DNA of 64,000 nucleotides from an uncultured Alphaproteobacteria bacterium (GCA_902617375.1 CACMWI010000001.1:64090-128089); one strand, 5' to 3'. Numbered from the stretch's first letter, positions 2,370-58,430 are shown. Notes: generated from the letters alone by a model not told the origin. Program-made: numbers and translations.

Positions 2370-2377
2370 TAATCGAA

Positions 2378-2764: not shown

Positions 2765-2767
2765 GAA

Positions 2768-5124: not shown

Positions 5125-6288
5125 TTATAAGTTTGAAAATGCTTTATCTATTTTTTCAATTGCCTCTTCTACATGTTTCATTTCTAAAATCAAAGGAGGT
5201 AACATTCTTATCACATTCTGTCCCGCCTTTACAGTAAGAAGTTTTTCGTTAATTAAAGACTTTATTAGAATTTCATTATTTTCAATTGCCTCTAAACCAA
5301 CCATTAATCCTATTCCTCTAACACCAGAAACTAATTTTGGAAATTTAGTTAATATATTTTCCTTAAGGAGTTTTCTCAAATTAAAACCGATTTCTCTAAC
5401 ATGATCTAAAAATTCTTCATTTAATACAAAATTTAAAACTTCTTGAGCAACTGCCATTGCAAGAGGGTTTCCGCCAAATGTTGATCCATGAGAACCCAAG
5501 TCCATTGATTTAGAAGTTTTTTTATCCAATAATAATGCCCCAATAGGAAAACCTCCACCTATTCCTTTGGCGACAGCTACTATATTTGGTTTTAACTCCT
5601 TGACCCATTCTGTTGCTAAAAATTTCCCCGTTCTTCCTACACCGCACTGAACCTCATCAAAAAATAAGAGAAGATTATTGTCATTGGCTATTTTTTGAAT
5701 ATCCCTTAAATATTCTTTTTTTGCAGGAGTTATTCCACCCTCACCTTGAACTGTTTCAATCATTATCGCAGCTGTTTCTTTATCTACACTCCTTGAGACT
5801 GCCCTACTGTCATTGAATTCAACTTGTTTAAATCCATTTAATACTGGTTCAAATCCCTCTGTTAATTTTGATTTTCCACTAGCGGATATGGCCGCGTAGG
5901 TTCTTCCATGGAAAGAATTTTTTGCGCAAATAATTTTGAATCTTTTTTCATTTACAGCATTAAAATATTTTCTTATAACTTTAATACCAGCTTCGACTGC
6001 CTCAGTTCCCGAATTACAAAAAAACACCGATTCAGCAAACGAATTTTTTGTAATTTTATCAGCAACGATTTGTTGATTTTCAATTCTAAAAAGATTTGAA
6101 CAATGCCATATTTTTTCAGCTTGAGATTTTAGTGCTGATATAAGAGACGGATGACTATGACCAAGACTGGTAACACCAATGCCGCTCGTAAAATCTAAAT
6201 ATCTTGTTCCTTTTTTGCAATAGAGATACACCCCGTCTCCATGATCGATCTCGATATTTAGAGGATTATATACTTTTAAAATACTCAT
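5125..6288 (-). CDS. argD: Acetylornithine aminotransferase (class III PLP aminotransferase)
   Basis: 387 aa. The PLP-lysine context is present (DEVQCGVGRTGKFLA), and it sits adjacent to argF. Confidence 0.85.
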   Translation of the reverse strand: MSILKVYNPLNIEIDHGDGVYLYCKKGTRYLDFTSGIGVTSLGHSHPSLISALKSQAEKIWHCSNLFRIENQQIVADKITKNSFAESVFFCNSGTEAVEAGIKVIRKYFNAVNEKRFKIICAKNSFHGRTYAAISASGKSKLTEGFEPVLNGFKQVEFNDSRAVSRSVDKETAAIMIETVQGEGGITPAKKEYLRDIQKIANDNNLLLFFDEVQCGVGRTGKFLATEWVKELKPNIVAVAKGIGGGFPIGALLLDKKTSKSMDLGSHGSTFGGNPLAMAVAQEVLNFVLNEEFLDHVREIGFNLRKLLKENILTKFPKLVSGVRGIGLMVGLEAIENNEILIKSLINEKLLTVKAGQNVIRMLPPLILEMKHVEEAIEKIDKAFSNL

Positions 6289-13164: not shown

Positions 13165-14038
13165 TATCTTCCACAATCAATAATCCATCACTAGAACATG
13201 CTAATTTATATTCAATCCGCATGTTATCAATTAGTCTTACCCCATTTATGGATATGGCTATAAAAATTCTTGAAATAGAGGGAACTTTAGTAAGTCTAGC
13301 CAAATTTTTTTCGTTTAAAATTTCTAAATAATGAACACGATCAATCCCAGATTTTTCTAAAAAGTCTTTGAAGTAGTTTAATCTATGAAGTGCAAAATTC
13401 CCTTCGATTATTTCTAGATTAATTTGCTTCAAAACTGTTGGGATGTATTTAGCAAGAAAAATTTTTTTTCCTAATAATTTATTTCTTGAAGAAAGCGCAA
13501 TTCCTTCCTTATTCCGTACCGTTGGATAAGACCTAACTTCTGTTTTAAATTCTAAGTCTTTAATTATTTTTTTTATAACTAGCAACTGTTGGTAATCCTT
13601 TTCCCCTAAAGTAATAGAATCTGGTTTTATTATATCCAAAAACTTAAGAATAATTTTAGCGACTCCTTCAAAATGGCTACTTCTATCAACTCCGCATAGT
13701 TTTCTTGCAATATGGCCCAATCTAAATTCAAACTTTACTACGTCTATAATTTGCGCATCCGGTAGAAATAGAACATCCACCCCTTCTGCTAAAAGTTTTT
13801 TTTTATCTGACTCAATTGTTCGGGGATAATTATCAAAATCTTTGTCGTCATTAAATTGTAGTGGGTTTACAAAAATGCTAACTACTCGTATTTCTTTAGT
13901 ATTTTCTGATTTTTTAAATAAACTTGAATGTCCTAAATGCAAGTTGCCCATTGTAGGAATAAAATTAATTAGCTTTCCTGATTTTCTTAAACTATCAATT
14001 TCTCTTGATAAAGTTTTTTCGTCACTTATTAATAACAT
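13154..14038 (-). CDS. panC: Pantoate--beta-alanine ligase (pantothenate synthetase)
   Basis: 294 aa. It has the HLGH ATP-binding motif (PTMGNLHLGHSSL) and the GEKDYQQL motif. Confidence 0.88.
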   Translation of the reverse strand: MLLISDEKTLSREIDSLRKSGKLINFIPTMGNLHLGHSSLFKKSENTKEIRVVSIFVNPLQFNDDKDFDNYPRTIESDKKKLLAEGVDVLFLPDAQIIDVVKFEFRLGHIARKLCGVDRSSHFEGVAKIILKFLDIIKPDSITLGEKDYQQLLVIKKIIKDLEFKTEVRSYPTVRNKEGIALSSRNKLLGKKIFLAKYIPTVLKQINLEIIEGNFALHRLNYFKDFLEKSGIDRVHYLEILNEKNLARLTKVPSISRIFIAISINGVRLIDNMRIEYKLACSSDGLLIVEDISF

Positions 14039-14814
14039 TGATTTTTTTTTGGATATTTTCCATTTAAAACCTCTAAAGAAAATTTTTTAACAGCTTGTTT
14101 TGCTACAGGAAAAAAATCAAAGTACTTTTTTGAAAATTTTGTTTTTAATTCGGTCATTCCCAAAATATCCTCTGTAACTATTATTTGTCCTCTGCAACAT
14201 TCAGATGCTCCTATGCCTATTATTGGTAAATCACTAACCTTTATTAATTCATCTACAACCTTCTTGAGAGTACATTCAACAACCACAGAAAAAACGCCAA
14301 CTTTTTTTAAAATACTAATATCTTTAAAGATCTGTTTTTTTTCTTTTTCACTTTTACCATATACCTTCGGTCTACCTGTAATTGATTGCGGAAGCATTCC
14401 CAAGTGTCCCATTACTTTAATTTTATTTTGAGTTAAAAACTCTATAGTATCAGCAACCTTTTCGCCTCCTTCTAATTTTACTGCCATAGCACCGGAAGAG
14501 GAAATTATTTTTCTTGCATTTTCTAATGCCTTATGTTTCGACGTCTCGTAAGTTCCAAATGGCATGTCAACAACGATAAAAGCTTCTTTAGTGTGTTTAA
14601 CTACTGATTTGGCGTGTCTTATGATCATATCCATGTCGACATTTCTTGTTGTTTTATGCCCGTAGAGCACAGGACCAACTGAGTCTCCGACAAGTATTAT
14701 ATCTGCACATTTATCGGCAATTTTCGCTATCGGAGCAGTGTAAGCTGTTAGACACACAATCTTAGATTTTGAAAAAATCTTTTTTAACGAATTTCTTTTT
14801 TTTCTTTTGTTCAA
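14029..14814 (-). CDS. panB: 3-methyl-2-oxobutanoate hydroxymethyltransferase
   Basis: 261 aa with LTAYTAPIAKIAD…VGDSVGPV…VVDMPFGTYE motifs. It overlaps the panC end. Confidence 0.88.
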   Translation of the reverse strand: MNKRKKRNSLKKIFSKSKIVCLTAYTAPIAKIADKCADIILVGDSVGPVLYGHKTTRNVDMDMIIRHAKSVVKHTKEAFIVVDMPFGTYETSKHKALENARKIISSSGAMAVKLEGGEKVADTIEFLTQNKIKVMGHLGMLPQSITGRPKVYGKSEKEKKQIFKDISILKKVGVFSVVVECTLKKVVDELIKVSDLPIIGIGASECCRGQIIVTEDILGMTELKTKFSKKYFDFFPVAKQAVKKFSLEVLNGKYPKKNQCY

Positions 14815-28799: not shown

Positions 28800-28895
28800 A
28801 AAAGGAGCTGAAATTTAACCCAATAGAAAACGTTACGGCTGCTTCTTTTCAGTTCTGACCGGATTGGCGAACCTATTGCCTAAATTCAACTCCCG
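28800..28895 (-). ncRNA. ffs: Signal recognition particle RNA (small 4.5S-type)
   Basis: On the - strand, GGTCAGAACTGAAAAGAAGCAGCC matches the conserved SRP RNA domain IV consensus (GGUCAGGUCCGGAAGGAAGCAGCC). The flanks GGGAGTTGAATTTAGGCAATAG and CTATTGGGTTAAATTTCAGCTCC pair into a long helix. It lies immediately 5' of dnaX, which is the conserved position. Confidence 0.75.
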
Positions 28896-45585: not shown

Positions 45586-46263
45586 ATGAATAAAGGACTT
45601 GTAACAAATATCACCACGCTGTTAATAACTATATATGGAACAGTATCTCCATTCTATTCTGCAGAAATTTTTATGGCGGGTTTATTCGGATTATCGGGTG
45701 GATTGACTAACTGGCTTGCCGTTCATATGCTTTTTGAGAAAGTTCCACTTCTTATTGGCTCCGGTGTTATTCCGTTGAGATTTAAAGAGTTCAAGGAAGG
45801 AATAAAAAACTTAATTATGCATGAGTTTTTTTCTTCCAAAGCTTTGGAGAATTTTTCATCAACAAAAAATCTTCCTGTAGATGAAATTTTAAATAAAATT
45901 AACTATGACGAGATCTATCTTAAGCTTATCGAAGCGATAAAAGAATCATCGTTAGGATCTATGCTTCAAATGGTTGGGGGTGAAAAAGCTTTAGAACCTT
46001 TAAAGGAACCATTAAAAACTAAAATTAAAGAAACAATAGATGAATTAAAAAATAAAAATTTTGCTAATAGTTCACTTTCTGAAGATTTTAAAAGTGAAGT
46101 TGAGTTAATAATTGACTCAAGGTTAAATGAATTAAGCCCAGAACAAGTAAAGTTTATAATAAAAGATATTATCCACAAACATCTTGGATGGTTGGTTGTG
46201 TGGGGAGGCGTATTTGGGTTTTTGATTGGACTTATTTTAGGCTTTCTTGGAGGTTTAAGTTGA
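45586..46263 (+). CDS. DUF445-family membrane protein
   Basis: 225 aa. It has N- and C-terminal TM helices and the DUF445 motif LSGGLTNWLAVHMLF. Confidence 0.6.
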   Translation: MNKGLVTNITTLLITIYGTVSPFYSAEIFMAGLFGLSGGLTNWLAVHMLFEKVPLLIGSGVIPLRFKEFKEGIKNLIMHEFFSSKALENFSSTKNLPVDEILNKINYDEIYLKLIEAIKESSLGSMLQMVGGEKALEPLKEPLKTKIKETIDELKNKNFANSSLSEDFKSEVELIIDSRLNELSPEQVKFIIKDIIHKHLGWLVVWGGVFGFLIGLILGFLGGLS

Positions 46264-47735
46264 AAAAAACGTTTTTTAATTTTAATAATACATACCATAA
46301 ATTACCAAAAACTTTTTATCAAGAAATCAAACCAAAACCAGTATCAAATCCAAAATTAATAGAATTCAATTTTGAACTTTCAAAATTTCTGAACGTTAAT
46401 AATTCTGTTGCCGACCAAGATCAAGGCAAACTAATTTTCTCAGGAAATAGTTTGCCCGCAGGAGCCAAACCAATCGCAATGGTCTATGCTGGGCATCAGT
46501 TTGGAAATTTTGTGCCACAACTAGGTGATGGAAGAGCTATTTTAATTGGCGAACAGATTGCAAAAAATGGAGAAAGATTTGATATACAACTTAAAGGATC
46601 AGGGAGAACTGCTTTCTCTAGACAAGGAGATGGAAGATCTCCACTTGGGCCTGTTATAAGAGAGTATATCCTTAGTGAATCATTGCATTATCTTGGAATA
46701 AAGAGTACGCGTTCATTAGCAATGGTAAGTACTGGAGAAACTGTTCTGAGAGAGGAGCCTTTGAAAGGAGGAATTTTAACCAGAGTTGCTTCAAGTCACA
46801 TAAGAATTGGAACATTTGAATTTTTCTTTTTTAAAGAGGATTTTTCTTCTCTGAAAAAATTGGCTGATTATTCAATTGCAAGACATTTTGCAATAAAAAA
46901 CAAAAATAAACCTTATGAATATCTTTTAGAAAGTGTAATTAAGTTACAAGCCGAATTAGTAGCAAAATGGATGAGTGTGGGCTTTATTCATGGAGTAATG
47001 AACACAGATAATACTTCTATAAGCGGAGAGACCATAGACTTTGGCCCATGCGCGTTTATGGATGAATACCATCCGACTAGAGTCTTTAGTTATATTGATC
47101 AAGGTGGAAGATATTCTTATATTAATCAAGGTAAAATAATGTTGTGGAACCTATCTAAGTTTGCAGAATGCCTTATACCTCTCTTAGACAATAATTTTGA
47201 AACTGCCAAAAAAAAAGCCATTAATTGTTTAGAAATCTATCCAAAATATTTTGAGGAATGTTGGTTAGATGAAATGAGAAAAAAATTAGGATTTAAAAAA
47301 AAAATAAAAGATGACCATATTTTGATAAACGATTTTTTTAAAATAATGCAAAAAAATAATATGGATTTTACGTTATCTTTCAGAAATCTTTCAAAAATTA
47401 CTTCCTCCAAAATAAACAGTTTTTTTGAAAAAGAATTGAAAGCATCAAAAGAAACAAAAAATTGGTTTGAAAAATGGAATAAAAGACTTGAGACTGAAAA
47501 TTCATCACGGTTAATTATTTCAAAAAAAATGTTAAAAATAAACCCAATTTATATTCCAAGAAATCACTTGGTAGAGTCCGTAATACATCAAGCTATGCAA
47601 GAAAATAATTTTTCAAAGATGAGGGAACTTTTAGAATTGGTTCGAGAACCATTCAAAGAAAAAAAATCAAAAAACTCCTACGGCCTGCCTCCAAAACCAG
47701 ATGAGGTAGTTACAAATACTTTCTGTGGAACTTAA
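46260..47735 (+). CDS. selO: Protein adenylyl/UMPyl-transferase SelO (YdiU, UPF0061)
   Basis: The SelO pseudokinase core is present (MVYAGHQFGNFVPQLGDGRAILIGE…LKGSGRTAFSRQGDGR…HGVMNTDN). A probable TTG start at 46260 overlaps the upstream stop by 4 nt, so the track's 46188 start is likely too early. Confidence 0.85.
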   Translation: MKKTFFNFNNTYHKLPKTFYQEIKPKPVSNPKLIEFNFELSKFLNVNNSVADQDQGKLIFSGNSLPAGAKPIAMVYAGHQFGNFVPQLGDGRAILIGEQIAKNGERFDIQLKGSGRTAFSRQGDGRSPLGPVIREYILSESLHYLGIKSTRSLAMVSTGETVLREEPLKGGILTRVASSHIRIGTFEFFFFKEDFSSLKKLADYSIARHFAIKNKNKPYEYLLESVIKLQAELVAKWMSVGFIHGVMNTDNTSISGETIDFGPCAFMDEYHPTRVFSYIDQGGRYSYINQGKIMLWNLSKFAECLIPLLDNNFETAKKKAINCLEIYPKYFEECWLDEMRKKLGFKKKIKDDHILINDFFKIMQKNNMDFTLSFRNLSKITSSKINSFFEKELKASKETKNWFEKWNKRLETENSSRLIISKKMLKINPIYIPRNHLVESVIHQAMQENNFSKMRELLELVREPFKEKKSKNSYGLPPKPDEVVTNTFCGT

Positions 47736-48139
47736 AGAACTGAGAATCCAAATTTTTTGCTTTGATTTAAAATTTGGTCTTCTGCTTCAAGCCAAAGTGG
47801 AATGGCTTGATCTAGAATTTTATACCCTTTTTCAGTTAATTTCATTACTTTTTTTCTTGAGTCCTTTGATTTTATTTGTTTAATAAGTCCATCTTTAAGC
47901 AGAATATTTAAACCTCTTGTTAGAGTTGTTCTGTCCATAGATAGTTCCTCTGAAAGTGAAATCAAAGTCTTATTTTCAGTTGTCGCTATAAATGATAGTA
48001 TAGTGAATTGAGTTATTCTAATGCCTACCGATTTTAATTTTCTATCGTAAAACTGAGTAGTTAATCGTGAAGCTTTTCTCATTTTAAAGCATTTACAACT
48101 TGTTAATTGTCTGTATTTGAATGATTTAGTTCTTTCCAT
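47732..48139 (-). CDS. MarR-family transcriptional regulator
   Basis: 135 aa with a winged-HTH domain (GIRITQFTILSFIATTENKTLISLSEELSMDRTTLTRGLNILLKDGLI). Confidence 0.8.
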   Translation of the reverse strand: MERTKSFKYRQLTSCKCFKMRKASRLTTQFYDRKLKSVGIRITQFTILSFIATTENKTLISLSEELSMDRTTLTRGLNILLKDGLIKQIKSKDSRKKVMKLTEKGYKILDQAIPLWLEAEDQILNQSKKFGFSVL

Positions 48140-48190
48140 ATATTTTTAAAAATTTTAGTTATAAATAATTCATAATTTAGCATTCATCAT

Positions 48191-48559
48191 CTAATGCGAA
48201 TCTAAATCTTTTTTAATATCCTTATGGTCTCCAATTACAATATGATTTTTACTTTTTGTTACAAATCTCTCAAGAAGTGGAATAAAGGCAAGAGGGATTA
48301 AACCGCCAACTACAATTCCTAAAATCATGCTTCTAATGTGCGGATCAAGATAACTAGCAATTGCGTCAGCAATTATATGAGATAGTGCAGCTCCGAATAT
48401 GCCAGCAACATAACCGTTAGAAATAATTTTTAGAAATCTATTGATACTGAAAGCTGAATAATATCCAACCAACATAATACTTACATGCACAAATCCAAAT
48501 ATAAGGCCTCTTAGGTTTGCAGCAGTTTCACTGAATAAATTTTCTAACAAATGTTCCAT
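48191..48559 (-). CDS. Hypothetical small membrane protein (3-4 TM)
   Basis: 122 aa, hydrophobic, with no recognisable family motif. Confidence 0.4.
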   Translation of the reverse strand: MEHLLENLFSETAANLRGLIFGFVHVSIMLVGYYSAFSINRFLKIISNGYVAGIFGAALSHIIADAIASYLDPHIRSMILGIVVGGLIPLAFIPLLERFVTKSKNHIVIGDHKDIKKDLDSH

Positions 48560-48685
48560 TAACTCTATTTTTTAATACCAAATTAATAAGAGTATTTAAC
48601 TAGTTTTACTTTTTTAAGTAAATTAATTTATTACTAAATGATAAATAAGATTGACTTCAAGAAAATTATACAGATAAAGTTTTGA

Positions 48686-49120
48686 ATGTACTTTCTTATT
48701 TTTCTTCTTTTTCTTCTAAATTTCGGAACGGTATCAAATGCCGATGAACTAATATTAGTCTGTAAAATGAATTATGGTATTTCAGGTGAGAACGATGAAA
48801 CTGATATCGAGTTTAAAAATTTGAGTATTATAGACGAAGATCTGGTGGTATTCTTAAATGTTGAAAAAAAATGGTTATCCGTTGAAAGTGAAAGAGATTT
48901 TAAAGAAAGTGGTGGAAAAATCAGTAAATCAAATTTTTTAGAAACAGATTCCAATATCTTTTCTATGTCTTATTTCGAAAATAATGGAACATTAGTGAGA
49001 AAAAATATTATTGAATTAAATCGATATACTGGTTTTATTAAACACGAATTCAGAACTAGTATAGAAACAATTTATAGAACTGGAACTTGTAAAGTATCAA
49101 AAAATAAAAGATTGTTTTAG
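48686..49120 (+). CDS. Small secreted two-cysteine protein, a paralogue of the island cargo family
   Basis: 144 aa. The signal peptide is followed by LILVCK near the mature N-terminus and TGTCKVSKN near the C-terminus. The same L-x-C-K/E … G-x-C-K/N scaffold occurs in the 52034 and 54083 genes. Confidence 0.5.
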   Translation: MYFLIFLLFLLNFGTVSNADELILVCKMNYGISGENDETDIEFKNLSIIDEDLVVFLNVEKKWLSVESERDFKESGGKISKSNFLETDSNIFSMSYFENNGTLVRKNIIELNRYTGFIKHEFRTSIETIYRTGTCKVSKNKRLF

Positions 49121-49182
49121 GAGTTTGCCAAATTGTTTGATTTATTCAGATTTTTATTTTCAACTCTATAAATATAAAATTT

Positions 49183-49205
49183 TTTATGGCGGAGAGAGAG
49201 GGATT
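49183..49205. repeat. attL-like 23-bp direct repeat (copy of the tRNA-Ser 3' end)
   Basis: TTTATGGCGGAGAGAGAGGGATT is identical to 56535..56557. Positions 5-23 are the reverse complement of the 3' acceptor/T-arm end of tRNA-Ser(GGA), including CCA. Confidence 0.85.
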
Positions 49206-49286
49206 GTCCACATACGCCTCTTAAATCCCTATTAATCAGGGAAATTAGGTGACTTAAAATATTTTTAGGGGTAAAGTCTAGGGGTA

Positions 49287-50522
49287 ATGACGATAATTAA
49301 GCAGGGAAATATCTATCATGCAGAGTTAAAAGTACCTAGAGATGTAAGGGAAATAATAGGTCAGAATAAATTTAGAAAGTCTTTGCAAACTACTGACATC
49401 AAAGAAGCTAAAAGAAAAGAACCAATCATAGTTTCAGCTTGGAAGGAAAAAATAGAAATAGCTAGAGGTAATGGCGGTGATATCAAGCAACTTGCACAAC
49501 AATATAGAGAAGCAAGTGACGAGGCTAAGGATGCTCTGGAGGATGTGTTTCAAGATATGGTTGCCGACGATTATGGGAAGGTGCATTATTCAGATTTAAG
49601 TCCTGAGCAAAGTGAGAAAGCTTTTTATAAATATGAAATTCTCACAGGTAAAATTATTCAAACAAATATATTGCTGAAAGAATGGTTAGACAGTTGGGAA
49701 GTAAATCCAAAAGGTAAAGAGCAAGGTCAACGATTTGTTGAAGAGTTTTGCAAAAAGTTTCCAGCAACAAGAGATGTAACTAAACAAAGTTTGTTTGAGT
49801 GGTGTTCCTTTATGATGGAAGTAAAGGAGTTAACAAAAAAAACAATTAGTTGTCGTTTGTCTCCTTGCAAAATGTATTGGCAACATCTTCAAATAAAGGG
49901 GTATGTTGATCCCGATAAAAATCCATTTACAAATTTAAGGCTAACTCAAAAATCTAAATCTAAAAAAAATAATTCGAGAGAGGAATTTTCTATTGATGAA
50001 ATCAACCAACTTTCTAAAGAAATAAAAAATAAAAGTGACCCTGAGCTGTATTACTTATTTCAAATTGCTATATACACAGGAGCAAGAATTGAAGAGATTT
50101 GTAAAATAAAAAAGAGAGATATTGGAAAAGAATTTATAAAAATTACTGATTCCAAAACTAGTGCTGGTATCCGAGAGGTTCCTATTCACAATCAACTTAC
50201 AGGATTAATAAAGGAGTTAAAAAATTCTCCAGAAGAAAAATATCTTATTAGTAATTTAGTGCCAAACAAGTTTGGTGAACGATCAGCTAGTATTGGTAAA
50301 AGATTCGGTCGATTGAAAAAGGGATTAGGGTTCAGTTCGACAAAAGTATTTCACTCAATTAGAAAGACAGTTGTCACACAATTAGAACAAGCTGAGGTCC
50401 CTGAGTCCGTTACTGCTGATATTGTTGGACACGAAAAAAAAACAATTACTTATGGCTTGTATAGTGGTGGGAGTAGCCTTAAACAAAAACTAGAGGCTAT
50501 TAATAAGATAAGTTATGATTAA
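49287..50522 (+). CDS. int: Tyrosine-type site-specific recombinase/integrase
   Basis: 411 aa with an N-terminal arm-binding/SAM-like region and a C-terminal catalytic domain containing the R…HxxR…Y pattern (TGARIEEICKIK…HSIRKTVVTQLEQ…ITYGLYSGG). Confidence 0.85.
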   Translation: MTIIKQGNIYHAELKVPRDVREIIGQNKFRKSLQTTDIKEAKRKEPIIVSAWKEKIEIARGNGGDIKQLAQQYREASDEAKDALEDVFQDMVADDYGKVHYSDLSPEQSEKAFYKYEILTGKIIQTNILLKEWLDSWEVNPKGKEQGQRFVEEFCKKFPATRDVTKQSLFEWCSFMMEVKELTKKTISCRLSPCKMYWQHLQIKGYVDPDKNPFTNLRLTQKSKSKKNNSREEFSIDEINQLSKEIKNKSDPELYYLFQIAIYTGARIEEICKIKKRDIGKEFIKITDSKTSAGIREVPIHNQLTGLIKELKNSPEEKYLISNLVPNKFGERSASIGKRFGRLKKGLGFSSTKVFHSIRKTVVTQLEQAEVPESVTADIVGHEKKTITYGLYSGGSSLKQKLEAINKISYD

Positions 50523-50525
50523 AGT

Positions 50526-51050
50526 ATGGCTCTTGAAACAAAAGAATTGACTGATCTGTATTATGAATTCATAAACCTTTCAAAAAAAGAAACACCATTT
50601 AGCAAATTTATGAATTTTTTGGGATTTCTTTTAGCTACTAGCTTTGTAATTTTTGTTGTTCTCTTTGGTTACAGTTTAGGTGTAGAAGAACTAAATGAGA
50701 AATATGAAAGATGGGGAGAGACTATATGGTTGGATTATTTTCTTGCGATAGGCAGTTATGCTATTGGTCCAATACTTGTAATTTGCTTTTGGTTCGGATA
50801 TATAACCACCGATATCCCTTTTGTTTTGTTTCAAAAGGAAACAAAAACAGAAAAAAGACTAAAGCAAATACTAAATATGATTTACGCCATAGAAGAACGT
50901 GATCATAAAAAGAAGCAAGACTCCGAGAAAAATATTCCCGCAGAAATAAAGAATGATTATAATTCAGAATTACAGAAAAGATGGACTATGTATACTGACC
51001 ATCGTTTTAGAATTAATGAACTAGAAAGAAAGTATAAGTTCAATAAATAG
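50526..51050 (+). CDS. Hypothetical 2-TM membrane protein, translationally coupled to the integrase
   Basis: 174 aa. Its ATG lies 4 nt after the integrase stop, and there is no recognisable Xis/AlpA motif. Confidence 0.45.
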   Translation: MALETKELTDLYYEFINLSKKETPFSKFMNFLGFLLATSFVIFVVLFGYSLGVEELNEKYERWGETIWLDYFLAIGSYAIGPILVICFWFGYITTDIPFVLFQKETKTEKRLKQILNMIYAIEERDHKKKQDSEKNIPAEIKNDYNSELQKRWTMYTDHRFRINELERKYKFNK

Positions 51051-51080
51051 AAAATTTGAATAGCTAATTAATTTTAAAAG

Positions 51081-51329
51081 TTATTTGGGAAGATTGCCAA
51101 AGTAAAAACATTCCTTTTGACCATACATCCAGATTACTTGATAAAGTTTCTTTTTGTATTCATAAATAATCATGATGGAATTTAGGTAAGAACCTTCTGA
51201 TATTTTTTTTCCTTTTGCAATAACTTTCATACAATCTTGATATAACGCTGGCTCCCCATATGTTACTTTGGCATTTAAATTTACTGATAAAAATAAAGTA
51301 AAAACAAAAACAAATATTAATTTTTTCAC
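51081..51329 (-). CDS. Small secreted hypothetical protein
   Basis: 82 aa with a signal peptide (MKKLIFVFVFTLFLSVNLNA) and two Cys residues. Confidence 0.45.
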   Translation of the reverse strand: MKKLIFVFVFTLFLSVNLNAKVTYGEPALYQDCMKVIAKGKKISEGSYLNSIMIIYEYKKKLYQVIWMYGQKECFYFGNLPK

Positions 51330-51430
51330 ACATTAATTTTAATTTAAAATAGTAGATTATCAAATTGAAACTTAAACTTGGGGGTAGGAAAAAAATAGGC
51401 CCCTTTGTTTTTATTTGTATAGTATCTAGA

Positions 51431-51457
51431 CAAAAAAAAACCTGACAGAAAGTCAGG
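51431..51457 (-). terminator. Rho-independent terminator (- strand)
   Basis: On the - strand, CCTGAC-TTTC-TGTCAGG is a perfect 6-bp stem with a loop, followed by T9. Confidence 0.7.
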
Positions 51458-51539
51458 CTTACAGTTACATATTTTTCTAGAATATTAAATTCAGATGCGT
51501 TTGTCAAATTATTTTTACTAAGTCATTGTTTTTATTGGA

Positions 51540-51635
51540 TTATTTTTTTTTCAAAAACCAATAAATTGCTACCCCTATGAGTACGATTGCTAATAAAAAG
51601 CCTCTGCCATAGGCTAGATGTGTGAGAACTTCCAT
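51540..51635 (-). CDS. Putative 31-aa hydrophobic micro-protein (type-I-toxin-like; speculative)
   Basis: The - strand ORF is ATG…TAA, encoding MEVLTHLAYGRGFLLAIVLIGVAIYWFLKKK. It has a single predicted TM helix and a C-terminal KKK. The perfect terminator sits ~85 nt downstream on the same strand. It is below the track's size cutoff. Confidence 0.3.
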   Translation of the reverse strand: MEVLTHLAYGRGFLLAIVLIGVAIYWFLKKK

Positions 51636-51696
51636 AGTTGATTAGTTATTGTAGCTACTACTACGACTTCCTATTACCTTTTTAAAAGACACAAGC

Positions 51697-51830
51697 CGTC
51701 TATATATTATTAATAATAGTATTAAGAATAATAGTAATAGTAGTAGTAATAGTAGTAGTAATAATATTATTAATCTAAGTATTAATAGTATTATTAATCT
51801 ATTTATTAATAATATTATTAATAATATTAC
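51697..51830. repeat. AT/G-only trinucleotide simple-sequence tract (AAT/AGT/ATT units)
   Basis: …AATAGTAATAGTAGTAGTAATAGTAGTAGTAATAATATTATTAAT… The tract has essentially no C over ~130 nt, lies in a non-coding gap, and is followed by an abrupt switch to GC-rich sequence. Confidence 0.7.
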
Positions 51831-51960
51831 CCTCTCTCGGAACTTGTCCGAAGCCTATCATGAGAACTAAATATAGACAACCCCCGTGGATTAATTTTCA
51901 GATAACCGGCTCGTCAACGTGAGGACTAATGGGGTACGACCCCGATTGTTGTTGTCACGA

Positions 51961-52077
51961 CTGACTTCCCTCTTCTTCTTGTCTTTATTTCTACATAGAC
52001 ATTCATTGTGTTTGTAATTTATTATTAGTTAACATGAAAAAAACATTGCTCATATTGATCTGTTTGTTTGTGTCTTC
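51961..52077 (+). repeat. Leader module copy A (promoter/5'UTR plus the first ~14 codons of a signal peptide)
   Basis: ~117 nt at ~90% identity to 54010..54126. It spans CTGACTxCxxTCTTCTTCTTGTxTTTATTTCTAxATAGACATTCATTGTGTTTGTAATTTATTATTAGTTAACATGAAAA…TTGATCTGTTTGTTTGTGTCTT. Confidence 0.85.
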
Positions 52078-52504
52078 GGGCTCAGTTTTTTCCCTAGAGC
52101 TAAATTGCAAATTCAATTCTTTTTTATACGAAGTTAACGGAGAAAAAACCAATCATGAAATCGATGAAGAAGACACTACTTCAATTTATTATGAACCAAA
52201 AAATCAATGGTTATGGGATTATCCAACAGATGCTCTACAGGATGATATTAATGTGTGGAAAGAAGAAAATAATTATAGCTATAACAAATCTGATGATTTT
52301 GTTTCTAGTAACAGGAAATATAAACAAAAAAATGCTCAATTAAATATAGAGTCTAAAAGACGAGAGATTCCAAAAGAATTACATCGCAGTCGTGCCTTTA
52401 AATTAGATTCCAAACTGAACTTAACTCTTATAACTGATAATCTATTCATCTATAATTTTTATGAAAAAAAGGTTACAGTAACAAGGAACGGAAAGTGTAA
52501 TTAA
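52034..52504 (+). CDS. Small secreted two-cysteine protein (island cargo family, copy 1)
   Basis: 156 aa with the shared leader MKKTLLILICLFVSSGSVFS. Cysteines sit near both ends of the mature region (LELNCKF … RNGKCN). Confidence 0.55.
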   Translation: MKKTLLILICLFVSSGSVFSLELNCKFNSFLYEVNGEKTNHEIDEEDTTSIYYEPKNQWLWDYPTDALQDDINVWKEENNYSYNKSDDFVSSNRKYKQKNAQLNIESKRREIPKELHRSRAFKLDSKLNLTLITDNLFIYNFYEKKVTVTRNGKCN

Positions 52505-52591
52505 ATGAGTGATTTCACAAAAGTAATCATAATTGATATCCTTCTCTTTGGATCTTTGTGGCTTTTGTTATAAAGCTAAAAGAAAATATTA

Positions 52592-52876
52592 ATGAATAAA
52601 CTATTACTCATATTGATCTGTTTGTTTGTTTATTCGTGTGAAGAAAGAAGTGAGAAATTAGAAAAAGTGGTGAGTGAAAATTTTAAAAACTCAGTATGGT
52701 TAGAGAAGAAAAGCAGAGTAGGAGAGTTTGGTGTGTCGGTAGAACCAGAAGAAGAATGGATAAAAACTATTTTGATTTTTGGATATTATGATAATCAAAT
52801 AAATTGTAACTCAATTAAAAGTAATTTTGAAGAAGAGTATCCTCAAGATACATTTAGGTGTAATCCTGTAAAATGA
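52592..52876 (+). CDS. Small secreted/lipo-protein with the related leader (copy 2)
   Basis: 94 aa with leader MNKLLLILICLFVYSCEE. It shares the 22-nt core CTCATATTGATCTGTTTGTTTGT with the other leaders. Confidence 0.5.
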   Translation: MNKLLLILICLFVYSCEERSEKLEKVVSENFKNSVWLEKKSRVGEFGVSVEPEEEWIKTILIFGYYDNQINCNSIKSNFEEEYPQDTFRCNPVK

Positions 52877-52908
52877 AAAAACTATTACTCTTATAAAGGT
52901 ATTATTTT

Positions 52909-53679
52909 ATGTGGAAAGACAGAGATAAAGCTGAAGTAATGGAAGAAATTTGGAATAAATTATATCCACTTCGTGAAAAGACAAAAAAATATTCCGAGCT
53001 AGAATGGCAAAAACACACCAACCCTATCACTGGTAAATTTCAGGATAGCATTGAAGGTTTCATGTGTGGAATAATTATTAGAAAAAATAAAAAATGGATT
53101 GCAGAACTTCACATTCTATGGATGCCTTGGATTAATAGTTTTGAAATTGCATCAATGATTAAAAACCATAAATCAAAAAATATAAGTGGAGAAGATTTAG
53201 AAAATAATTTTGTTGAAGGTGACCCAATAAAAAACCTGAAACTTTTATTTCTCCAATTTGAGAAACATATCAATCAATTAATCTCTATTATTGATGAAGG
53301 AAAAGATTTAAAAAAAAATTTACCAAGAGAGTGGTATGGAGAAAATGTTTATCAACAACTTATTGAAGCCTTCAAAAAAGATCCAGCAGGGTCTTTAAAA
53401 TTTATTTTTAGAATAATTTTTTCAATAATCTCATGGATAATTATTTTAATTTTTCTTGTTTGGGCGATTTTCTTTTCAGATGCTACCCAAGAATTAAGAG
53501 ATAAATTTTGGAAAGCCTTTGAAAGTAAGGAAGAACCTAAAGAAATATATTTACCAGTTGATCCTTCAAAAGAATTACCTCCAAGACCATTGAATGACGA
53601 GGAATTTAAAAAATTTATGGATGAAGAGTTTGATTATAACGAAGAAATCAGAAAGAGATTAAACAAAATAAAAGATTAA
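52909..53679 (+). CDS. Hypothetical protein with a C-proximal TM segment
   Basis: 256-aa ORF with a hydrophobic segment IIFSIISWIIILIFLVWAIFF and an acidic C-terminus. Confidence 0.4.
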   Translation: MWKDRDKAEVMEEIWNKLYPLREKTKKYSELEWQKHTNPITGKFQDSIEGFMCGIIIRKNKKWIAELHILWMPWINSFEIASMIKNHKSKNISGEDLENNFVEGDPIKNLKLLFLQFEKHINQLISIIDEGKDLKKNLPREWYGENVYQQLIEAFKKDPAGSLKFIFRIIFSIISWIIILIFLVWAIFFSDATQELRDKFWKAFESKEEPKEIYLPVDPSKELPPRPLNDEEFKKFMDEEFDYNEEIRKRLNKIKD

Positions 53680-53709
53680 AAGCTAATGTTGTAGATAAAA
53701 GTAAATAGG

Positions 53710-53997
53710 ATGCATTCGTACACCAAAGGAATAATTTTCATGCTTTATTTGTCAGTCATAATTTGTCTGACAAAAGTAAAAGGTTCTTCTTTTATAGAGG
53801 TAATTATAGTTACCGTTTACATGTTCCTGTGGTGTATACCAATTGTTAATTCCCTTAAGCCCTCTAAAATTAGGAGTGAAGATAAAACTGATGTAGAATT
53901 GCGGGGCATAGCTGCTTATATGATTTTTGCCTGGGTCCCAGGATTATGGTGGTCACTGAAAGAATTTCTAAGAGGTGGATTATTAGGGATTGGGTGA
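53710..53997 (+). CDS. Hypothetical small 2-3 TM membrane protein
   Basis: 95 aa, hydrophobic. Confidence 0.35.
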   Translation: MHSYTKGIIFMLYLSVIICLTKVKGSSFIEVIIVTVYMFLWCIPIVNSLKPSKIRSEDKTDVELRGIAAYMIFAWVPGLWWSLKEFLRGGLLGIG

Positions 53998-54009
53998 TTA
54001 TTAAAACAA

Positions 54010-54126
54010 CTGACTACTTTCTTCTTCTTGTGTTTATTTCTATATAGACATTCATTGTGTTTGTAATTTATTATTAGTTAACATGAAAAGAATATTGCTC
54101 GTATTGATCTGTTTGTTTGTGTCTTT
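54010..54126 (+). repeat. Leader module copy B
   Basis: See copy A. It includes the ATG at 54083 and the signal peptide MKRILLVLICLFVS. Confidence 0.85.
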
Positions 54127-54523
54127 TGAGGTGAAATCCGAATCTGATGATTTAAGTGGCAAAAAGTTGTTGTGTGAGGGGAAATATGAAGGATACAAGA
54201 GAACTATTGGGATAAATTTTGTCGATAATTATGCTATTAGGATAATCACAGTGCATTATAATGACTCATTAAACAACCCATTAAATGAACCTTGGTTAAG
54301 TGACTTTGATGGACATTACACAACAACCTTAAGAAAAATCAAAATTCATGAATTAAATTTTTTAAAATATAATATAGACAGGGTAACATTAAATGATGGA
54401 GAAAATTTCTTATGTAAAATAACGAATGTTAATTTAGAAAAAACACTAAAAGAAAAATTTATAAAAGTAAAAAAGAAACGTGAACAAAATATTATTAAAA
54501 TAAAAAAACAAAGAAAAATATGA
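54083..54523 (+). CDS. Small secreted two-cysteine protein (island cargo family, copy 3)
   Basis: 146 aa with the shared leader. It has KLLCEGKY near the mature N-terminus, FLCKITN near the C-terminus, and a Lys-rich tail. Confidence 0.55.
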   Translation: MKRILLVLICLFVSFEVKSESDDLSGKKLLCEGKYEGYKRTIGINFVDNYAIRIITVHYNDSLNNPLNEPWLSDFDGHYTTTLRKIKIHELNFLKYNIDRVTLNDGENFLCKITNVNLEKTLKEKFIKVKKKREQNIIKIKKQRKI

Positions 54524-54861
54524 GTGGTTTTTTTTACGAGTTCTGTAAGGCTGATTTCCTTTGTTATGCCGGGGAACCACATTGGTTGGGTTGGATAGTT
54601 TTAATAATTTTATTTTTTGGAATTCTATATTTAATTTTAAGAATAGTCACATCTGAAGCTTTTCAAGAGAATAGTGAATCTTATTTCGATGAAAAATCAA
54701 CGAAACAGCAAGAAATTTACAAAGATTCTCAAGGAAACCCTTTTATAGATTCTGAAGGAAACCCAGTACAGCAAAAATGGATTGATAAACACCTTGGTAA
54801 GATTGGATTTTTGATAAGTTTAATTGTTATCTGGAGTCTCTGGTTTATTGCATTAGATTAA
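54520..54861 (+). CDS. Hypothetical 2-TM membrane protein
   Basis: 113 aa with TM helices at both ends. It overlaps the previous stop by 4 nt. Confidence 0.4.
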   Translation: MSGFFYEFCKADFLCYAGEPHWLGWIVLIILFFGILYLILRIVTSEAFQENSESYFDEKSTKQQEIYKDSQGNPFIDSEGNPVQQKWIDKHLGKIGFLISLIVIWSLWFIALD

Positions 54862-54928
54862 AATTTCTTAAACTTTAAATTTGATTATTAATACTTTTGT
54901 GAATATTATTTTTAAAGTATTAGTTTAA

Positions 54929-55480
54929 ATGAAAAAACTTCACTTCAGACTTTTTAAATATATTTTTAGTAGACCATATCCATTTAATCATTGGTTGATA
55001 TTACTAACCGCATACTCAAAATTATGGATATATTCGTTTTTTTATTCTCTTACCTTTGGTTTAATTCTTCAAATATCGTTTATTGATTACCTAAAGTTTT
55101 ATTTTGTTATTAATTTTTTCTTTATGATTTTCATTGTTTTACGTTCTTATAAACTAAAAGATTTGTTTCTACTAATCTATCACACAATAGAACAATTATT
55201 TAGAATGACTATAGGAAGACTATTTGGGTTACGACCAATAAATTATTATTATAAACCATTTGATCAAAAAAAATTTTATGGAAAAAATGTTTTAGATTTA
55301 GAAGAAGAAAGATCAAAAATATTTGAGAAAAAATATGAAGAAATAGATTTCCTAGTCCTTAATGATTACATCACGATAGAAGAGGGGAATAAGAGAACAG
55401 ATGAATTATTAAAAGAACAGTATAGGTGTGGCTTTCTAATAACACTAGGTGGTCATTATGAAACCGTAAGTGTTAATTAA
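54929..55480 (+). CDS. Hypothetical multi-TM membrane protein
   Basis: 183 aa with a hydrophobic N-terminal two-thirds. Confidence 0.4.
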   Translation: MKKLHFRLFKYIFSRPYPFNHWLILLTAYSKLWIYSFFYSLTFGLILQISFIDYLKFYFVINFFFMIFIVLRSYKLKDLFLLIYHTIEQLFRMTIGRLFGLRPINYYYKPFDQKKFYGKNVLDLEEERSKIFEKKYEEIDFLVLNDYITIEEGNKRTDELLKEQYRCGFLITLGGHYETVSVN

Positions 55481-55482
55481 TA

Positions 55483-55683
55483 ATGAAAGAATTTTTTGAA
55501 AGATTTATGATAATTACACACTATCTTTTTTGGATAGTAGGATTTCTTTTGATTATGGCATTTAACAATGATGAGGCAGGTTTACTTTTGCTCTTTATCG
55601 TCGGAGCTATTTTCTCATCTTTTCCCGCATTATTATGGTATTTATTTTTTGGTAAACCACGATGGTTTCCTTGGGATAAATAA
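55483..55683 (+). CDS. Hypothetical small 2-TM membrane protein
   Basis: 66 aa. It starts 3 nt after the previous stop. Confidence 0.35.
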   Translation: MKEFFERFMIITHYLFWIVGFLLIMAFNNDEAGLLLLFIVGAIFSSFPALLWYLFFGKPRWFPWDK

Positions 55684-55746
55684 AATTTTTAAGACAGATA
55701 CAGCAGTGATATCTTGAATTAACAAAAGAAGAAATACTAAATTTCT

Positions 55747-56397
55747 CTATTTGTCTTCTATTTTTTCAATACAAATACCATCCTTATATCTTCCATAGTT
55801 TTTTACACCATCAGATATTTCTACTCCATATCCATGTTCCAAACCATTTTTAAAGTCACCTTCGTATATATTACCGTCCGCATTTTTTAATTTACCTTTT
55901 CCGTGGTATTTACCATTTTCAAAATTTCCTTCATATGTTTCCAGACGATCCCCCGAATAATCTTTCCATGTTATTTTGCATGTTCCATAACCATTTTGAA
56001 GGTTATTCCTCCATCGACAGTTATACCTAAATAATTTCCCTTTTTCTTTTTTAACCATTGTACCTTCACCTTCAAACTTTCCATGTACAAGTTGTCCATC
56101 ATAATAATCGCCATTTTTAAAGCTTACTTTCCCGGTACCATGGGGTAATTCATTTTTAATTTCACCCTTATAAACTCTATCGGAAAGTTCTAATGAACCC
56201 TTTGAAAATACATCTTTCTTAGTGGTTTCTGGAATACATGAAACTTCATTATTTTCTAATGAAATTTTCGATTCTTTTCGAGGTGTTTCTGTTGGCGGTG
56301 ATTTTTCTTTAGCAAAGAAATAAACAAAAACAATAAATACGATAAGGATAATAAAATATATAAAGTCTGGTTCAGTAAAAAAATAAAGATAAGCCAT
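55747..56397 (-). CDS. MORN-repeat protein with an N-terminal TM anchor
   Basis: 216 aa. An N-terminal TM helix is followed by ≥5 MORN-type repeats (YxGxxxxGxxxGxG: YKGEIKNELPHGTGKVSF, YDGQLVHGKFEGEGT, YEGNFENGKYHGKGKL, YEGDFKNGLEHGYGVE). Confidence 0.65.
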   Translation of the reverse strand: MAYLYFFTEPDFIYFIILIVFIVFVYFFAKEKSPPTETPRKESKISLENNEVSCIPETTKKDVFSKGSLELSDRVYKGEIKNELPHGTGKVSFKNGDYYDGQLVHGKFEGEGTMVKKEKGKLFRYNCRWRNNLQNGYGTCKITWKDYSGDRLETYEGNFENGKYHGKGKLKNADGNIYEGDFKNGLEHGYGVEISDGVKNYGRYKDGICIEKIEDK

Positions 56398-56534
56398 AAG
56401 ATAATTTTATTTAGTTCGATAAATATAACAATAAAATAAGCCAGGTTATTTGTCTCAGCTTTTTTTAGGGGTAATGATTAGGGGTAAAAAGCCAATTTAA
56501 AGCCCGTAGAAGCACAGAAACAAAAGGGTTATAG

Positions 56535-56557
56535 TTTATGGCGGAGAGAGAGGGATT
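56535..56557. repeat. attR-like 23-bp direct repeat overlapping the tRNA-Ser 3' end
   Basis: Identical to 49183..49205. Confidence 0.85.
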
Positions 56558-56629
56558 CGAACCCTCGAAACAGTTTCCTGTTTACACGCTTTCCAAGCGT
56601 GCGCCTTCAGCCACTCGGCCACCTCTCCA
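56539..56629 (-). tRNA. tRNA-Ser (anticodon GGA), CCA encoded, long variable arm
   Basis: The reverse complement reads GGAGAGGTGGCCGAGTGGCTGAAGGCGCACGCTTGGAAAGCGTGTAAACAGGAAACTGTTTCGAGGGTTCGAATCCCTCTCTCTCCGCCA. The anticodon stem CACGC/GCGTG encloses loop TTGGAAA (anticodon GGA), and the variable arm is long. Confidence 0.9.
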
Positions 56630-56630
56630 G

Positions 56631-58430
56631 TTAATTGTCTGAAGTTTTGAGAACATTTATAAAGGCTGATTGAGGAATTTCTACTTTACCAAATTGCCTC
56701 ATTCTCTTTTTTCCTTTTTTTTGCTTGTCCAATAATTTATTTTTTCTTGTTACATCGCCACCATACAACTTTGCAGTTACATCTTTTCTATAACTATTAA
56801 TTGTTTCTCTAGCTATTATTTTACCACCTATTGCAGCTTGAAGCGGAATTTTGAATTGTTGTTTAGGAATCAATTTGCATAATTTTTCGCAATACACTTT
56901 TCCTCTCGAAACTGACTTTGATCTATGACAAATAAAAGAAAGGGCATCAACTGATTCAGAATTTACAAGAATTTGAACTCTGACTAAGTCACTTTCTGTG
57001 TATTCTTTAAACTCATAATCAAAACTTGCATACCCACTTGTAATTGATTTAAGTCTGTCATAAAAATCAAAAACTACTTCCGAAAGAGGTAATAGGTACT
57101 CAATCATAGCTCTTTTCCCAACGTAACTTAGGTTTTTCTGTATTCCCCTTCTTTCTGTACAAAGTTGTATCACTGATCCAAGATATTCATCTGGAAGCAA
57201 AATCGTTGCTTTAATAATCGGTTCAGATATTTTTTTTATTTTCATTATGTCAGGCAGTTCAGAAGGATTATGAATATCAAAAATTTTTCCATCCGTAAGT
57301 TCGATCTTATACACCACTGACGGAGACGTTGTAATTAAGTTCAAGTCAAACTCTCTTCTCAGTCTCTCCTGAATTATTTCTAAGTGCAACAAACCTAAGA
57401 ATCCACATCTGAAACCAAGACCAAGCGCAGCAGATGTCTCTGGTTCAAATGAAAAACTAGCATCATTCAAACCAAGTTTTAAAAGACTATCTCTTAATAG
57501 ATCGTAGTCGTCAGCATCAATGGGATATAAACCGCAAAATACAACTGGTCTACTAGGTTTAAATCCTGAAAGAGGTTGATTAGTAGGTTTTAATGAGTCT
57601 GTAATTGTGTCTCCGACTTTGCAGTCACTTACATGTTTAATGCCTGCTGTAATAAATCCTATTTCTCCTTTCTCTAAAACATCAGTATATTTTATTTTTG
57701 GAGTAAAAAACCCACATTTCTCAACAATATATGAGGCTTGGGTCCCCATCATTTTAAGTTTCATTCCTTTTTTTAATTGTCCAGCATGAACTCTCACTAG
57801 AATAATTACCCCTAGATAAGGATCATACCAACTGTCAATTAACATTGCTAAAAGCGTGGTGTCCTCTACTGTTTTAGGGCAAGGAAGCCTTTCAACTATT
57901 GCTTCCAAGAGTTCATCTACACCATTACCTGTTTTTGCAGAAACAAGAATAGCGTTTGATGCATCCAAGCCTATCACATCTTCTATTTGTTTTTTTATTC
58001 TCTCTGGTTCAGAAGAAGGTAAATCTATTTTGTTCAAAACAGGAATTATTTCATGATTATTTTCTATAGCCTGATAAACATTTGCTAAAGTTTGAGCCTC
58101 AACACCTTGAGAAGAATCAACAACAAGAAGTGAGCCCTCGCAAGATGCCAAAGATCTACTTACTTCATAAGAAAAATCAACATGACCAGGTGTATCCATT
58201 AAATTAAAATTGTAAATATCGTTATTTTTTGCTTTGTATTTTAAATAAACAGTTTGTGCTTTTATTGTGATTCCTCTCTCCCGCTCTATTTCCATAGAAT
58301 CCAAAACTTGTTCTTTCATTTCTCTTTCAGGTAATCCTCCACACCTTTGAATTATTCTATCAGCGAGAGTCGATTTTCCATGATCTATGTGTGCGATAAT
58401 TGAAAAATTTCTAATTCTTTCAATTAACAT
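56631..58430 (-). CDS. lepA: Elongation factor 4 (LepA)
   Basis: 599 aa with G-domain motifs ([21 protein letters not shown]) and the LepA C-terminal domain. Confidence 0.92.

Follow-up and report, generated by a model that had tools for sequence, protein, structure and literature searches.

We analysed a 64,000-nucleotide stretch of the genome of an uncultured Alphaproteobacteria bacterium (GCA_902617375.1, CACMWI010000001.1:64090-128089; hereafter the window, with positions counted from its first letter). Positions 49183-56557 are an integrative island, bounded by attachment (att) sites, at the 3' end of a tRNA-Ser(GGA) gene. The island spans 7,352 bp when one copy of its terminal repeat is counted, and it carries its own tyrosine integrase (gene int) together with a set of small genes whose products are expected to reside in the cell envelope. 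The type of island is itself already known, as lambda-type integration aimed at a tRNA gene belongs to a long-known kind of element. What takes this locus beyond a textbook island is the family-wide specificity for tRNA-Ser, the arm-site doublets that co-vary with the integrase, the association with defense genes in related islands, and an all-envelope cargo of orphan open reading frames (ORFans) with common gene heads.

The host is a low-GC (~30%) marine alphaproteobacterium whose closest genomes are GORG single-cell genomes; its LepA has relatives at 83-84% identity that bear the labels Pelagibacteraceae, Rickettsiales or Alphaproteobacteria. Streamlined ocean bacteria have few mobile elements, and the ways in which flexible genes come and go in such cells remain a matter of debate. 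This locus represents a clean, testable case, with an intact integrase, defined attB, attL and attR sites, and predicted arm sites.

Boundaries of the Island and Its Empty Site

The 23-mer TTTATGGCGGAGAGAGAGGGATT is present in two exact copies in the window (Table 1); no third copy with three or fewer mismatches was found in the 64 kb, and none in 100 shuffles. Given the position of the intact tRNA-Ser(GGA) gene, as determined with ARAGORN and Rfam, the right repeat covers the terminal 19 nt of the tRNA, CCA included, and the next 4 nt downstream, and the block of tRNA identity in the repeat extends from the T-loop to past the CCA end. At their inner side the two copies diverge sharply, GGGATT being followed by GTCCAC in the left copy and by CGAACC in the right copy. 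Since identity ends at the repeat edges, the 23-bp repeat is not a piece of a longer duplicated tRNA pseudogene, which had been named beforehand as a finding that would speak against integration. An earlier interpretation of this DNA, made from the sequence alone (the sequence-only reading), had proposed an exact 23-bp direct repeat bounding ~7.4 kb, with the second copy overlapping the 3' 19 nt of an intact tRNA-Ser, and both proposals hold, the distance between the two exact copies being 7.35 kb. Searches of the island for known RNAs with Rfam, at the gathering threshold and at E ≤ 1, returned the tRNA alone.

Two metagenome contigs, found by look-up of the 144-aa protein that adjoins the left repeat, have the same site without the island. 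In L004 (ENA ERZ17148319), window positions 45683-49205 match positions 1-3524 at 98% identity and window positions 56535-57110 match positions 3502-4077 at 97.6%, so that the left and right homology blocks have exactly the 23-bp core in common and there is no insert. L003 (GCA_900157355.1) has the same left flank, followed by the 23-mer and the tRNA, at which point the contig ends. The gene order of these contigs is selO-marR-122aa-144aa, a single 23-mer, then tRNA-Ser-lepA. L106, L107, and L108, three single-cell genomes with a LepA at 87-88% identity, are insert-free as well, with lepA, tRNA-Ser(GGA), the 122-aa gene, MarR and SelO. The sequence-only reading had named repeat-delimited presence and absence among relatives as its check, and relatives carrying the block with no such polymorphism as evidence to the contrary; what we found were precise empty sites, to the base in L004 and L003, along with those of L106-L108.

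The Integrase

The tyrosine integrase that had been placed just inside the left repeat proved to be full-length in Pfam and PHROG searches, with matches to PF00589 (E 6.5e-17), DUF6538 (E 7e-12, residues 4-60) and PHROG 1 (E 1.6e-38); its gene starts 82 bp past the left core. Its best match by sequence to a solved structure is lambda Int (1z1b, E 2.5e-6, integrase residues 114-388). Consistent with this, the best fold matches in the PDB, as determined by Foldseek, are lambda Int complexes (E 3e-7), with the full-length chains aligned over 411 columns, and IntI ranks below lambda Int. The AlphaFold (AF2) model, based on 116 homologs, has a mean pLDDT of 86.9, and its N-terminus (residues 3-59) is modelled as strand-strand-helix-strand-long helix, that is, a three-stranded sheet plus helix. 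At the catalytic residues R267, K290, H356, R359, H382, and Y389/Y392 there is little or no variation among the 116 homologs. The int gene differs from that of L007, a related island at tRNA-Ser(GGA) in another host, by 40 synonymous and 14 non-synonymous codons, and by this measure it is under purifying selection. We read the integrase, on sequence and modelled structure, as heterobivalent and lambda-type.

No close relative of the integrase was found among 50,697 phage records (which gave weak catalytic-domain matches only), 72,556 plasmids, or 2.9 million IMG/VR contigs, and its nearest named homologs are proteobacterial. A literature search returned no paper mentioning DUF6538 or the names of the single-amplified genomes (SAGs).

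Predicted Arm Sites and the Integrase Family

The motif TAGGGGTAA has five copies in the window, against 0.34 expected, and four of these form a doublet at each end of the island, with all four on one strand (Table 1). A circle formed by joining the ends would read P doublet, 47 nt, the 23-bp core, 60 nt, P' doublet and int. The predicted attP junction is AAAGGGTTATAG-TTTATGGCGGAGAGAGAGGGATT-GTCCACATACGCC and the predicted junction of the empty attB is AAATATAAAATTTT-TTTATGGCGGAGAGAGAGGGATT-CGAACCCTCG. The same layout of a core with doublets at both ends is found in L007 (integrase 96% identical; tRNA-Ser GGA), where the left core has one mismatch, in L008 (69%; tRNA-Ser TGA) and in L018 (49%; tRNA-Ser GCT), and the doublet before int is found in L006, L007, L008, L018, and L025-L027. 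An A/T-rich box at 56488-56505 (AAGCCAATTTAAAGCC in the window), situated between the P doublet and the core, is semi-conserved in L007, L008, L018, L025, L026, and L109, and is a possible site for an accessory protein.

To take a census of the family, we scanned metagenomes with the integrase alignment and obtained 19 loci, with integrase identities down to ~35%. Some 100-130 bp ahead of int, these loci have a partial 3' end of tRNA-Ser, and the region before int also contains a doublet or triplet of 8-10-bp direct repeats with a 12-13-bp period. The repeat motif varies with integrase lineage (TAGGGGTAA, GGGGGTAA, TAGGTATAA, GTGTGGTAAC, and GTGGTACA, with GTAGTACAAAA, GTGTGGGG, CTACTCCAA, and TTGGGTTA as further lineage-specific motifs). 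Mainly because of this co-variation we consider DUF6538 a putative arm-site binder, and infer that it is an arm-binding domain with the doublets as its sites, which would provide a function for this domain. Where census contigs bear a tRNA it is almost always tRNA-Ser (gga, tga, gct or cga), and the family appears to be specialized for these isoacceptors.

In L025-L027 (integrase 47-49% identical) the P doublet, core and P' doublet are joined, all upstream of int. The L025 contig (8,606 bp) has an exact 123-bp terminal overlap, as in a circle, and is apparently circular. No attP junction of the window's own element was found; a scan of IMG/VR for core-plus-island junctions returned two unrelated phages that use tRNA-Ser.

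Heterotypic tandem junctions were observed in L019 (~780-970) and L020 (~1105-1295): there the shared tRNA-Ser core is preceded by the P arm of one island type (GGGGGGTAA or TAGGTATAA doublet) and followed by the P' arm and int of another type. As both orders were seen, different islands stack at one tRNA. A tRNA-Ser(TGA) pseudogene and its P arm, both decayed, are situated ~1 kb left of the L008 island (L008 8767-8900), and the gene just outside the intact tRNA (L008 19691-20455) is a PD-(D/E)XK paralog of that island's last gene. In L018 a second, different tyrosine recombinase (326 aa, 13186-14166) is situated across tRNA-Ser(GCT) from a 3-kb island of the family.

Proposed Mechanism and Alternatives

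We consider it highly likely that recombination between attP and the tRNA-Ser(GGA) attB by the element's own lambda-type tyrosine integrase is the explanation of this island. An attP borne by the element would recombine site-specifically with the 3' end of tRNA-Ser(GGA) as attB, the island's own integrase catalyzing the reaction and the tRNA being left intact. The DUF6538 domain would bind the doublets as arm-type sites and, in the manner of lambda Int, the tRNA core would be the substrate of the core-binding and catalytic domains. Int may also repress its own gene through the P' site that overlaps the int ATG, and excision would rejoin both ends as a circle. Neither an excisionase (or any Xis-like ORF) nor a replication, conjugation or packaging gene was recognized in the island with Pfam, PHROG or NCBIfam; with no transfer or replication genes, passage from cell to cell must rely on something else, for example vesicles, transduction or uptake.

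A comparison with L007 bears on how recently the element moved. Over the right end of the island (55473-56472) the two hosts are 98-100% identical, with c66 and the MORN gene at 99%, versus 92-94% directly past the tRNA and 93.4% in LepA (nucleotide identities). The right end being closer to L007 than the adjoining core indicates that this segment of the island is younger than the surrounding chromosome. The left flank, though, is ~97% identical, which points to frequent recombination in these populations, and the argument for recent movement is therefore supportive rather than decisive. On balance the element is real and probably recently mobile.

Two alternatives to integration as described also have observations in their favor. 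A fixed, decaying remnant, in which an old integration is now immobile and the pattern among genomes has arisen from lineage sorting or deletion, would accommodate the lack of an attP junction and of a recognized excisionase, the mismatch in the L007 left core, and the decayed P arms and tRNA pseudogene beside related islands. Against such a remnant are the perfect 23-bp repeats, the intact int under apparent purifying selection, the intact arm sites at both ends, the precisely empty contigs with flanks ~98% identical, and the right end that is 98-100% alike between two hosts versus 92-94% in the adjoining core gene, and we regard it as unlikely. A flexible island kept mainly by homologous recombination via its flanks or internal repeats, with the integrase and terminal repeats incidental, would be consistent with the mosaic cargo of the window and L007, whose breakpoints are at conserved heads, with the unequal divergence of the flanks (~97% left versus ~93% right), which suggests frequent recombination, and with a cargo lipoprotein common to an island at another tRNA. 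However, the edges of the insert match the tRNA-derived core to the base, and unrelated genomes have the same arrangement of core and arms at four tRNA-Ser isoacceptors. Neither feature is explained by anything but site-specific integration, and homologous exchange is best considered a second process that reshuffles cargo; as the main explanation we judge it very improbable.

A prophage remnant, or a helper-dependent satellite resembling the phage-inducible chromosomal islands (PICIs), would share the tRNA att site, the phage-type integrase (PHROG 1) and, for a satellite, the small size. Yet none of the cargo ORFs matches the 38,880 PHROG families, there is no capsid, terminase, primase or repressor, and the integrase has no relative in the 2.9 million IMG/VR contigs and only weak catalytic-domain matches in the 50,697 phage genomes, which leaves this origin with next to no likelihood.

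Table 1. Features of the island and its boundaries, by position in the window
Feature	Position	Strand	Remarks
attL core	49183..49205	+	Distal copy of the 23-bp repeat, displaced tRNA-Ser 3' end; homology with the L004/L003 chromosome stops here
P' arm	49266..49287	+	Two TAGGGGTAA sites 13 bp apart (49266, 49279); the second overlaps the int ATG (TAGGGGTAATG)
Tyrosine integrase, 411 aa	49287..50522	+	Faces island interior; DUF6538 N-terminal, core-binding and catalytic domains
c174, 2-TM membrane protein	50526..51050	+	4 nt past int; no family match
c82, small secreted protein, 2 Cys	51081..51329	-	Signal-like N-terminus; singleton cluster; weakest gene call
Promoter-like box and hairpin	51410..51552	-	TTGACA-17-TATTCT, then hairpin (51438-51460) and T-run; conserved
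c31, 31-aa hydrophobic ORF	51540..51635	-	Candidate small membrane peptide; conserved in L006, L007
AT-rich simple repeat, 12-nt period	51692..51832	.	Length varies by 12-24 nt among window, L006, L007
Cassette head 1	51957..52076	+	77 nt upstream (promoter-like TAGACA-18-TATTAT) plus 43-nt signal-peptide start of c156
c156, secreted, predicted small beta-barrel	52034..52504	+	Invariant C25, C155
c94, small lipoprotein-like secreted protein	52592..52876	+	LFVYSC; has signal-peptide 45-mer
c256, single-pass membrane protein	52909..53679	+	Lineage-restricted; 92% identical in L007
c95, small 2-TM ORF	53710..53997	+	Exact sequence absent from protein collection; weak gene call
Cassette head 2	54006..54125	+	Second copy of the 120-nt head, start of c146
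c146, secreted basic protein	54083..54523	+	Starts in cassette head 2
c113, 2-TM membrane protein	54520..54861	+	Start overlaps c146 stop (ATGA)
c183, membrane protein	54929..55480	+	Weak relatives in islands L007, L023
c66, 2-TM membrane peptide	55483..55683	+	Identical protein in L007, 2 synonymous differences
MORN-repeat protein, membrane-anchored, 216 aa	55747..56397	-	PF02493 E 3e-20; 98% identical in L007
P arm	56466..56487	+	Two TAGGGGTAA sites 13 bp apart (56466, 56479); orientation of the P' pair
attR core	56535..56557	+	Repeat copy forming the 3' end of the functional tRNA
tRNA-Ser(GGA), intact, integration target	56539..56628	-	ARAGORN; Rfam 56.7 bits

Cargo Genes of the Island

Besides int, the cargo comprises 11 ORFs of 66-256 aa and a 31-aa ORF (Table 1). 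A hydropathy scan identified a signal-like or transmembrane (TM) segment in all 11, four of which are secreted or lipoprotein-like (c82, c156, c94, and c146) and seven membrane proteins. This count has to be read with care, as hydrophobic ORFs are favored in AT-rich DNA and there is little or no support elsewhere for c82, c95, and c183. The MORN protein is the only one with a family match in Pfam, the 38,880 PHROG families or NCBIfam, in agreement with the earlier description of the cargo as ORFan-like secreted and membrane proteins plus a MORN protein. Ten of the cargo proteins were compared with the 5,027 PADLOC models for defense systems, with no match.

The suggestion, also from the sequence-only reading, that the cargo is a surface/interaction or defense module is still hypothetical: the company of sister islands with defense genes (see below) favors it and the PADLOC result does not. 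Our best guess, which we hold to be less likely than not, is that the cargo modifies or protects the cell envelope, for instance by blocking phage or lysozyme-type attack at the surface. Compact envelope ORFans in a mobile setting linked to defense do provide a list of candidates, as yet unproven, for new protective functions at the cell surface.

Several of the cargo genes have relatives elsewhere. The position of c174 after int is kept in L109, where c174 is 53% and the integrase 86% identical. Eight homolog clusters of c156 were found among 1.84 billion representatives, and its two invariant cysteines are near the mature N-terminus and the C-terminus; its model (pLDDT 84.3) is beta-rich, and Foldseek returned no fold relative below E 0.001. 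A match of c156 to a 4,219-aa phage-fiber-repeat protein was discarded as spurious, since the single alignments have E ~1e-3 and the score is summed over repeats. The lineage-restricted c256 has only five homolog clusters among 5.8 billion, and no relative was found in the PDB. It differs from its L007 counterpart by 19 non-synonymous and 8 synonymous changes (versus 14 and 40 for int), and would be either fast-evolving or under relaxed constraint. Following its N-terminal TM anchor, the MORN protein contains some six genuine MORN repeats, and its residues 75-211 match MORN1 structures. We also considered whether c156, c146, c94, c82, and a 144-aa protein of the flank form a common superfamily, and set this aside as unproven because the c156-family profile gave only E>0.02, driven by the signal peptide.

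The protein cluster of c94 is also represented in an island at a different tRNA with a different integrase (L101), which implies that a cargo pool is common to different island types. That island (L101 5100-13734), in another single-cell genome, is situated at tRNA-Thr(TGT) with a 451-aa integrase of another type, and has a run of small ORFs that includes the close c94 homolog and an Adhesin_E-like protein.

Cassette Heads and Mosaic Structure

Positions 51957-52076 and 54006-54125 are two copies, 93% identical, of a 120-nt repeat, and each copy is the head of a secreted-protein gene (Table 1). The 45-nt signal-peptide start has a third copy at 52592 and a decayed copy at 52873. The cargo of the window and that of L007 form a mosaic: 51381-52075, 52869-53675, and 55473 onward are common to both, whereas L007 has other sequence in place of 50527-51380 and 52076-52868 and lacks 53676-55472. 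One of the breakpoints is inside the 120-nt head, and from this arrangement we infer an exchange of cassettes through homologous recombination at the heads.

An unusually long non-coding stretch had been remarked on previously, and it is real, at 51330-52033, but not empty: it contains the 31-aa ORF, the promoter-like box with its hairpin, the 12-nt-period repeat and a 120-nt gene head. Structured RNA in the GC-richer part (51835-52035) was unsupported, with z-scores of -1.1 and -0.8. A Logan contig of the same strain stops within ~100 bp of the 12-nt-period repeat.

The promoter-hairpin element (TTGACA-17-TAnnnT, ~20 nt to the hairpin, then nine T) is kept across differing integrases and tRNA targets, with further copies at L008 15007-15146 (island) and 5556-5658 (flank) and at L101 5833-6018 (the tRNA-Thr island), the last with a hairpin of differing sequence and like form. 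It is always upstream of a cargo gene on the same strand and has no Rfam entry. Possible identities are a mobile promoter carrying an attenuator and a very short RNA.

Cargo of Sister Islands

Islands with related integrases have different contents. L006 (integrase 97% identical) carries a ThiF/E1-like and a DnaJ-like gene, L110 (92%) an AAA_12 helicase with REase_MTES_1575, and L109 (86%) a DnaJ-MORN protein. L008 (69%) carries a GajB-like UvrD helicase, a GmrSD_N/Schlafen protein (HEC-05) and a Cas4-like nuclease, while L023 (66%) has a complete Zorya type II system (ZorA2 3e-87, ZorB2 2e-85, ZorE2 1.5e-62) and L020/L022 (55%) an RND efflux system. These contents indicate that the family is a carrier of variable, often defense-related cargo. 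The Zorya II genes (ZorA/B/E), HEC-05/GmrSD-like genes, GajB-like helicases and helicase-REase of sister islands (integrases 66-92% identical) are a likeness to defense islands, in contrast to which the window's cargo consists of small envelope proteins only and has no PADLOC match. A more far-reaching proposal would be that DUF6538 integrases constitute a large undescribed family of minimal tRNA-Ser elements, each made up of an integrase and an attP whose arm doublets are lineage-specific and have a 13-bp period, that shuttle defense and envelope genes in streamlined SAR11-like marine bacteria, with the window's cargo a new surface protection module (e.g., for exclusion of phage or lytic enzymes) and its cassettes swapped via the heads; taken as a whole, we consider this rather doubtful.

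Comparison With Known Systems

The window's integrase resembles lambda Int in that lambda Int is its best structural match by both sequence and fold, the catalytic residues are kept, and there is an additional modelled N-terminal domain. As in lambda attP, the core in the family's joined attP is flanked on either side by repeated sites that differ from it in sequence. However, identity to lambda Int is ~15%, and the N-terminal domain of the window's integrase is DUF6538. Its arm sites are one doublet per arm, in a single orientation with a 13-bp period, and the element targets a tRNA gene without a recognized Xis or phage genes. As with the P4-like and other tRNA-targeting islands, the element brings a 3' part of the tRNA that restores the gene, and its integrase is beside one att site. 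Unlike in those islands, the integrase is at the end remote from the intact tRNA and is of a different, uncharacterized family that appears to be specialized for tRNA-Ser. Williams, in 2002, is said to have distinguished sublocation classes for tRNA-targeting integrases.

Like an integron, the window's island combines a tyrosine recombinase with an adjacent series of small, exchangeable genes that have no known function, but it has no IntI-type integrase, attI or attC and is not an integron. A repeat scan of the island found no attC-like elements, only the 5' heads, and the cassettes have their own promoter-like head and signal peptide and are apparently exchanged by homology.

Tycheposons have been reported from Prochlorococcus, with a shorter account for marine Alpha-, Gamma- and Deltaproteobacteria, and their hallmark replication and mobility genes are an optional module (Hackl et al., bioRxiv 10.1101/2020.12.28.424599). 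The window's island is similar to cargo-carrying tycheposons in its streamlined marine host, tRNA site, partial tRNA repeat and inward-facing tyrosine recombinase at one end, and its relatives are similar in their variable cargo, including phage-interference genes, and in tandem accretion at one tRNA. It differs in that the hallmark primase, helicase, polymerase and excisionase are missing. Its lifestyle fits the published descriptions of cargo-carrying tycheposons, and it may be one of them. A paper on islands of HIMB59 was considered as a precedent and rejected, since the islands there do not have tRNA boundaries, which is not the case in the window.

Flanking Genes and Other Features of the Window

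The island is situated between SelO/MarR (left) and LepA/PheT (right), in keeping with the description of the flanks as core in the sequence-only reading, which did not hold for the 144-aa gene beside the left repeat. This gene (48686-49120, outside the repeat) encodes a secreted two-Cys protein and is present in the empty sites of the same species, L003 and L004; it is missing from the related empty sites L106-L108 and is therefore accessory. It may be a relic of an older insertion, and a search for an att scar to its left found none.

A GOS contig (L005) that is ~99.8% identical to the window has, at window positions 47674-48280, neither the MarR gene nor the beginning of the 122-aa gene, representing a deletion polymorphism of ~600 bp beside the island site. 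Elsewhere in the window, a small bacterial SRP RNA gene with no tie to the island is present on the minus strand at 28801-28893 (Rfam, 45.9 bits) and is of an ordinary kind.

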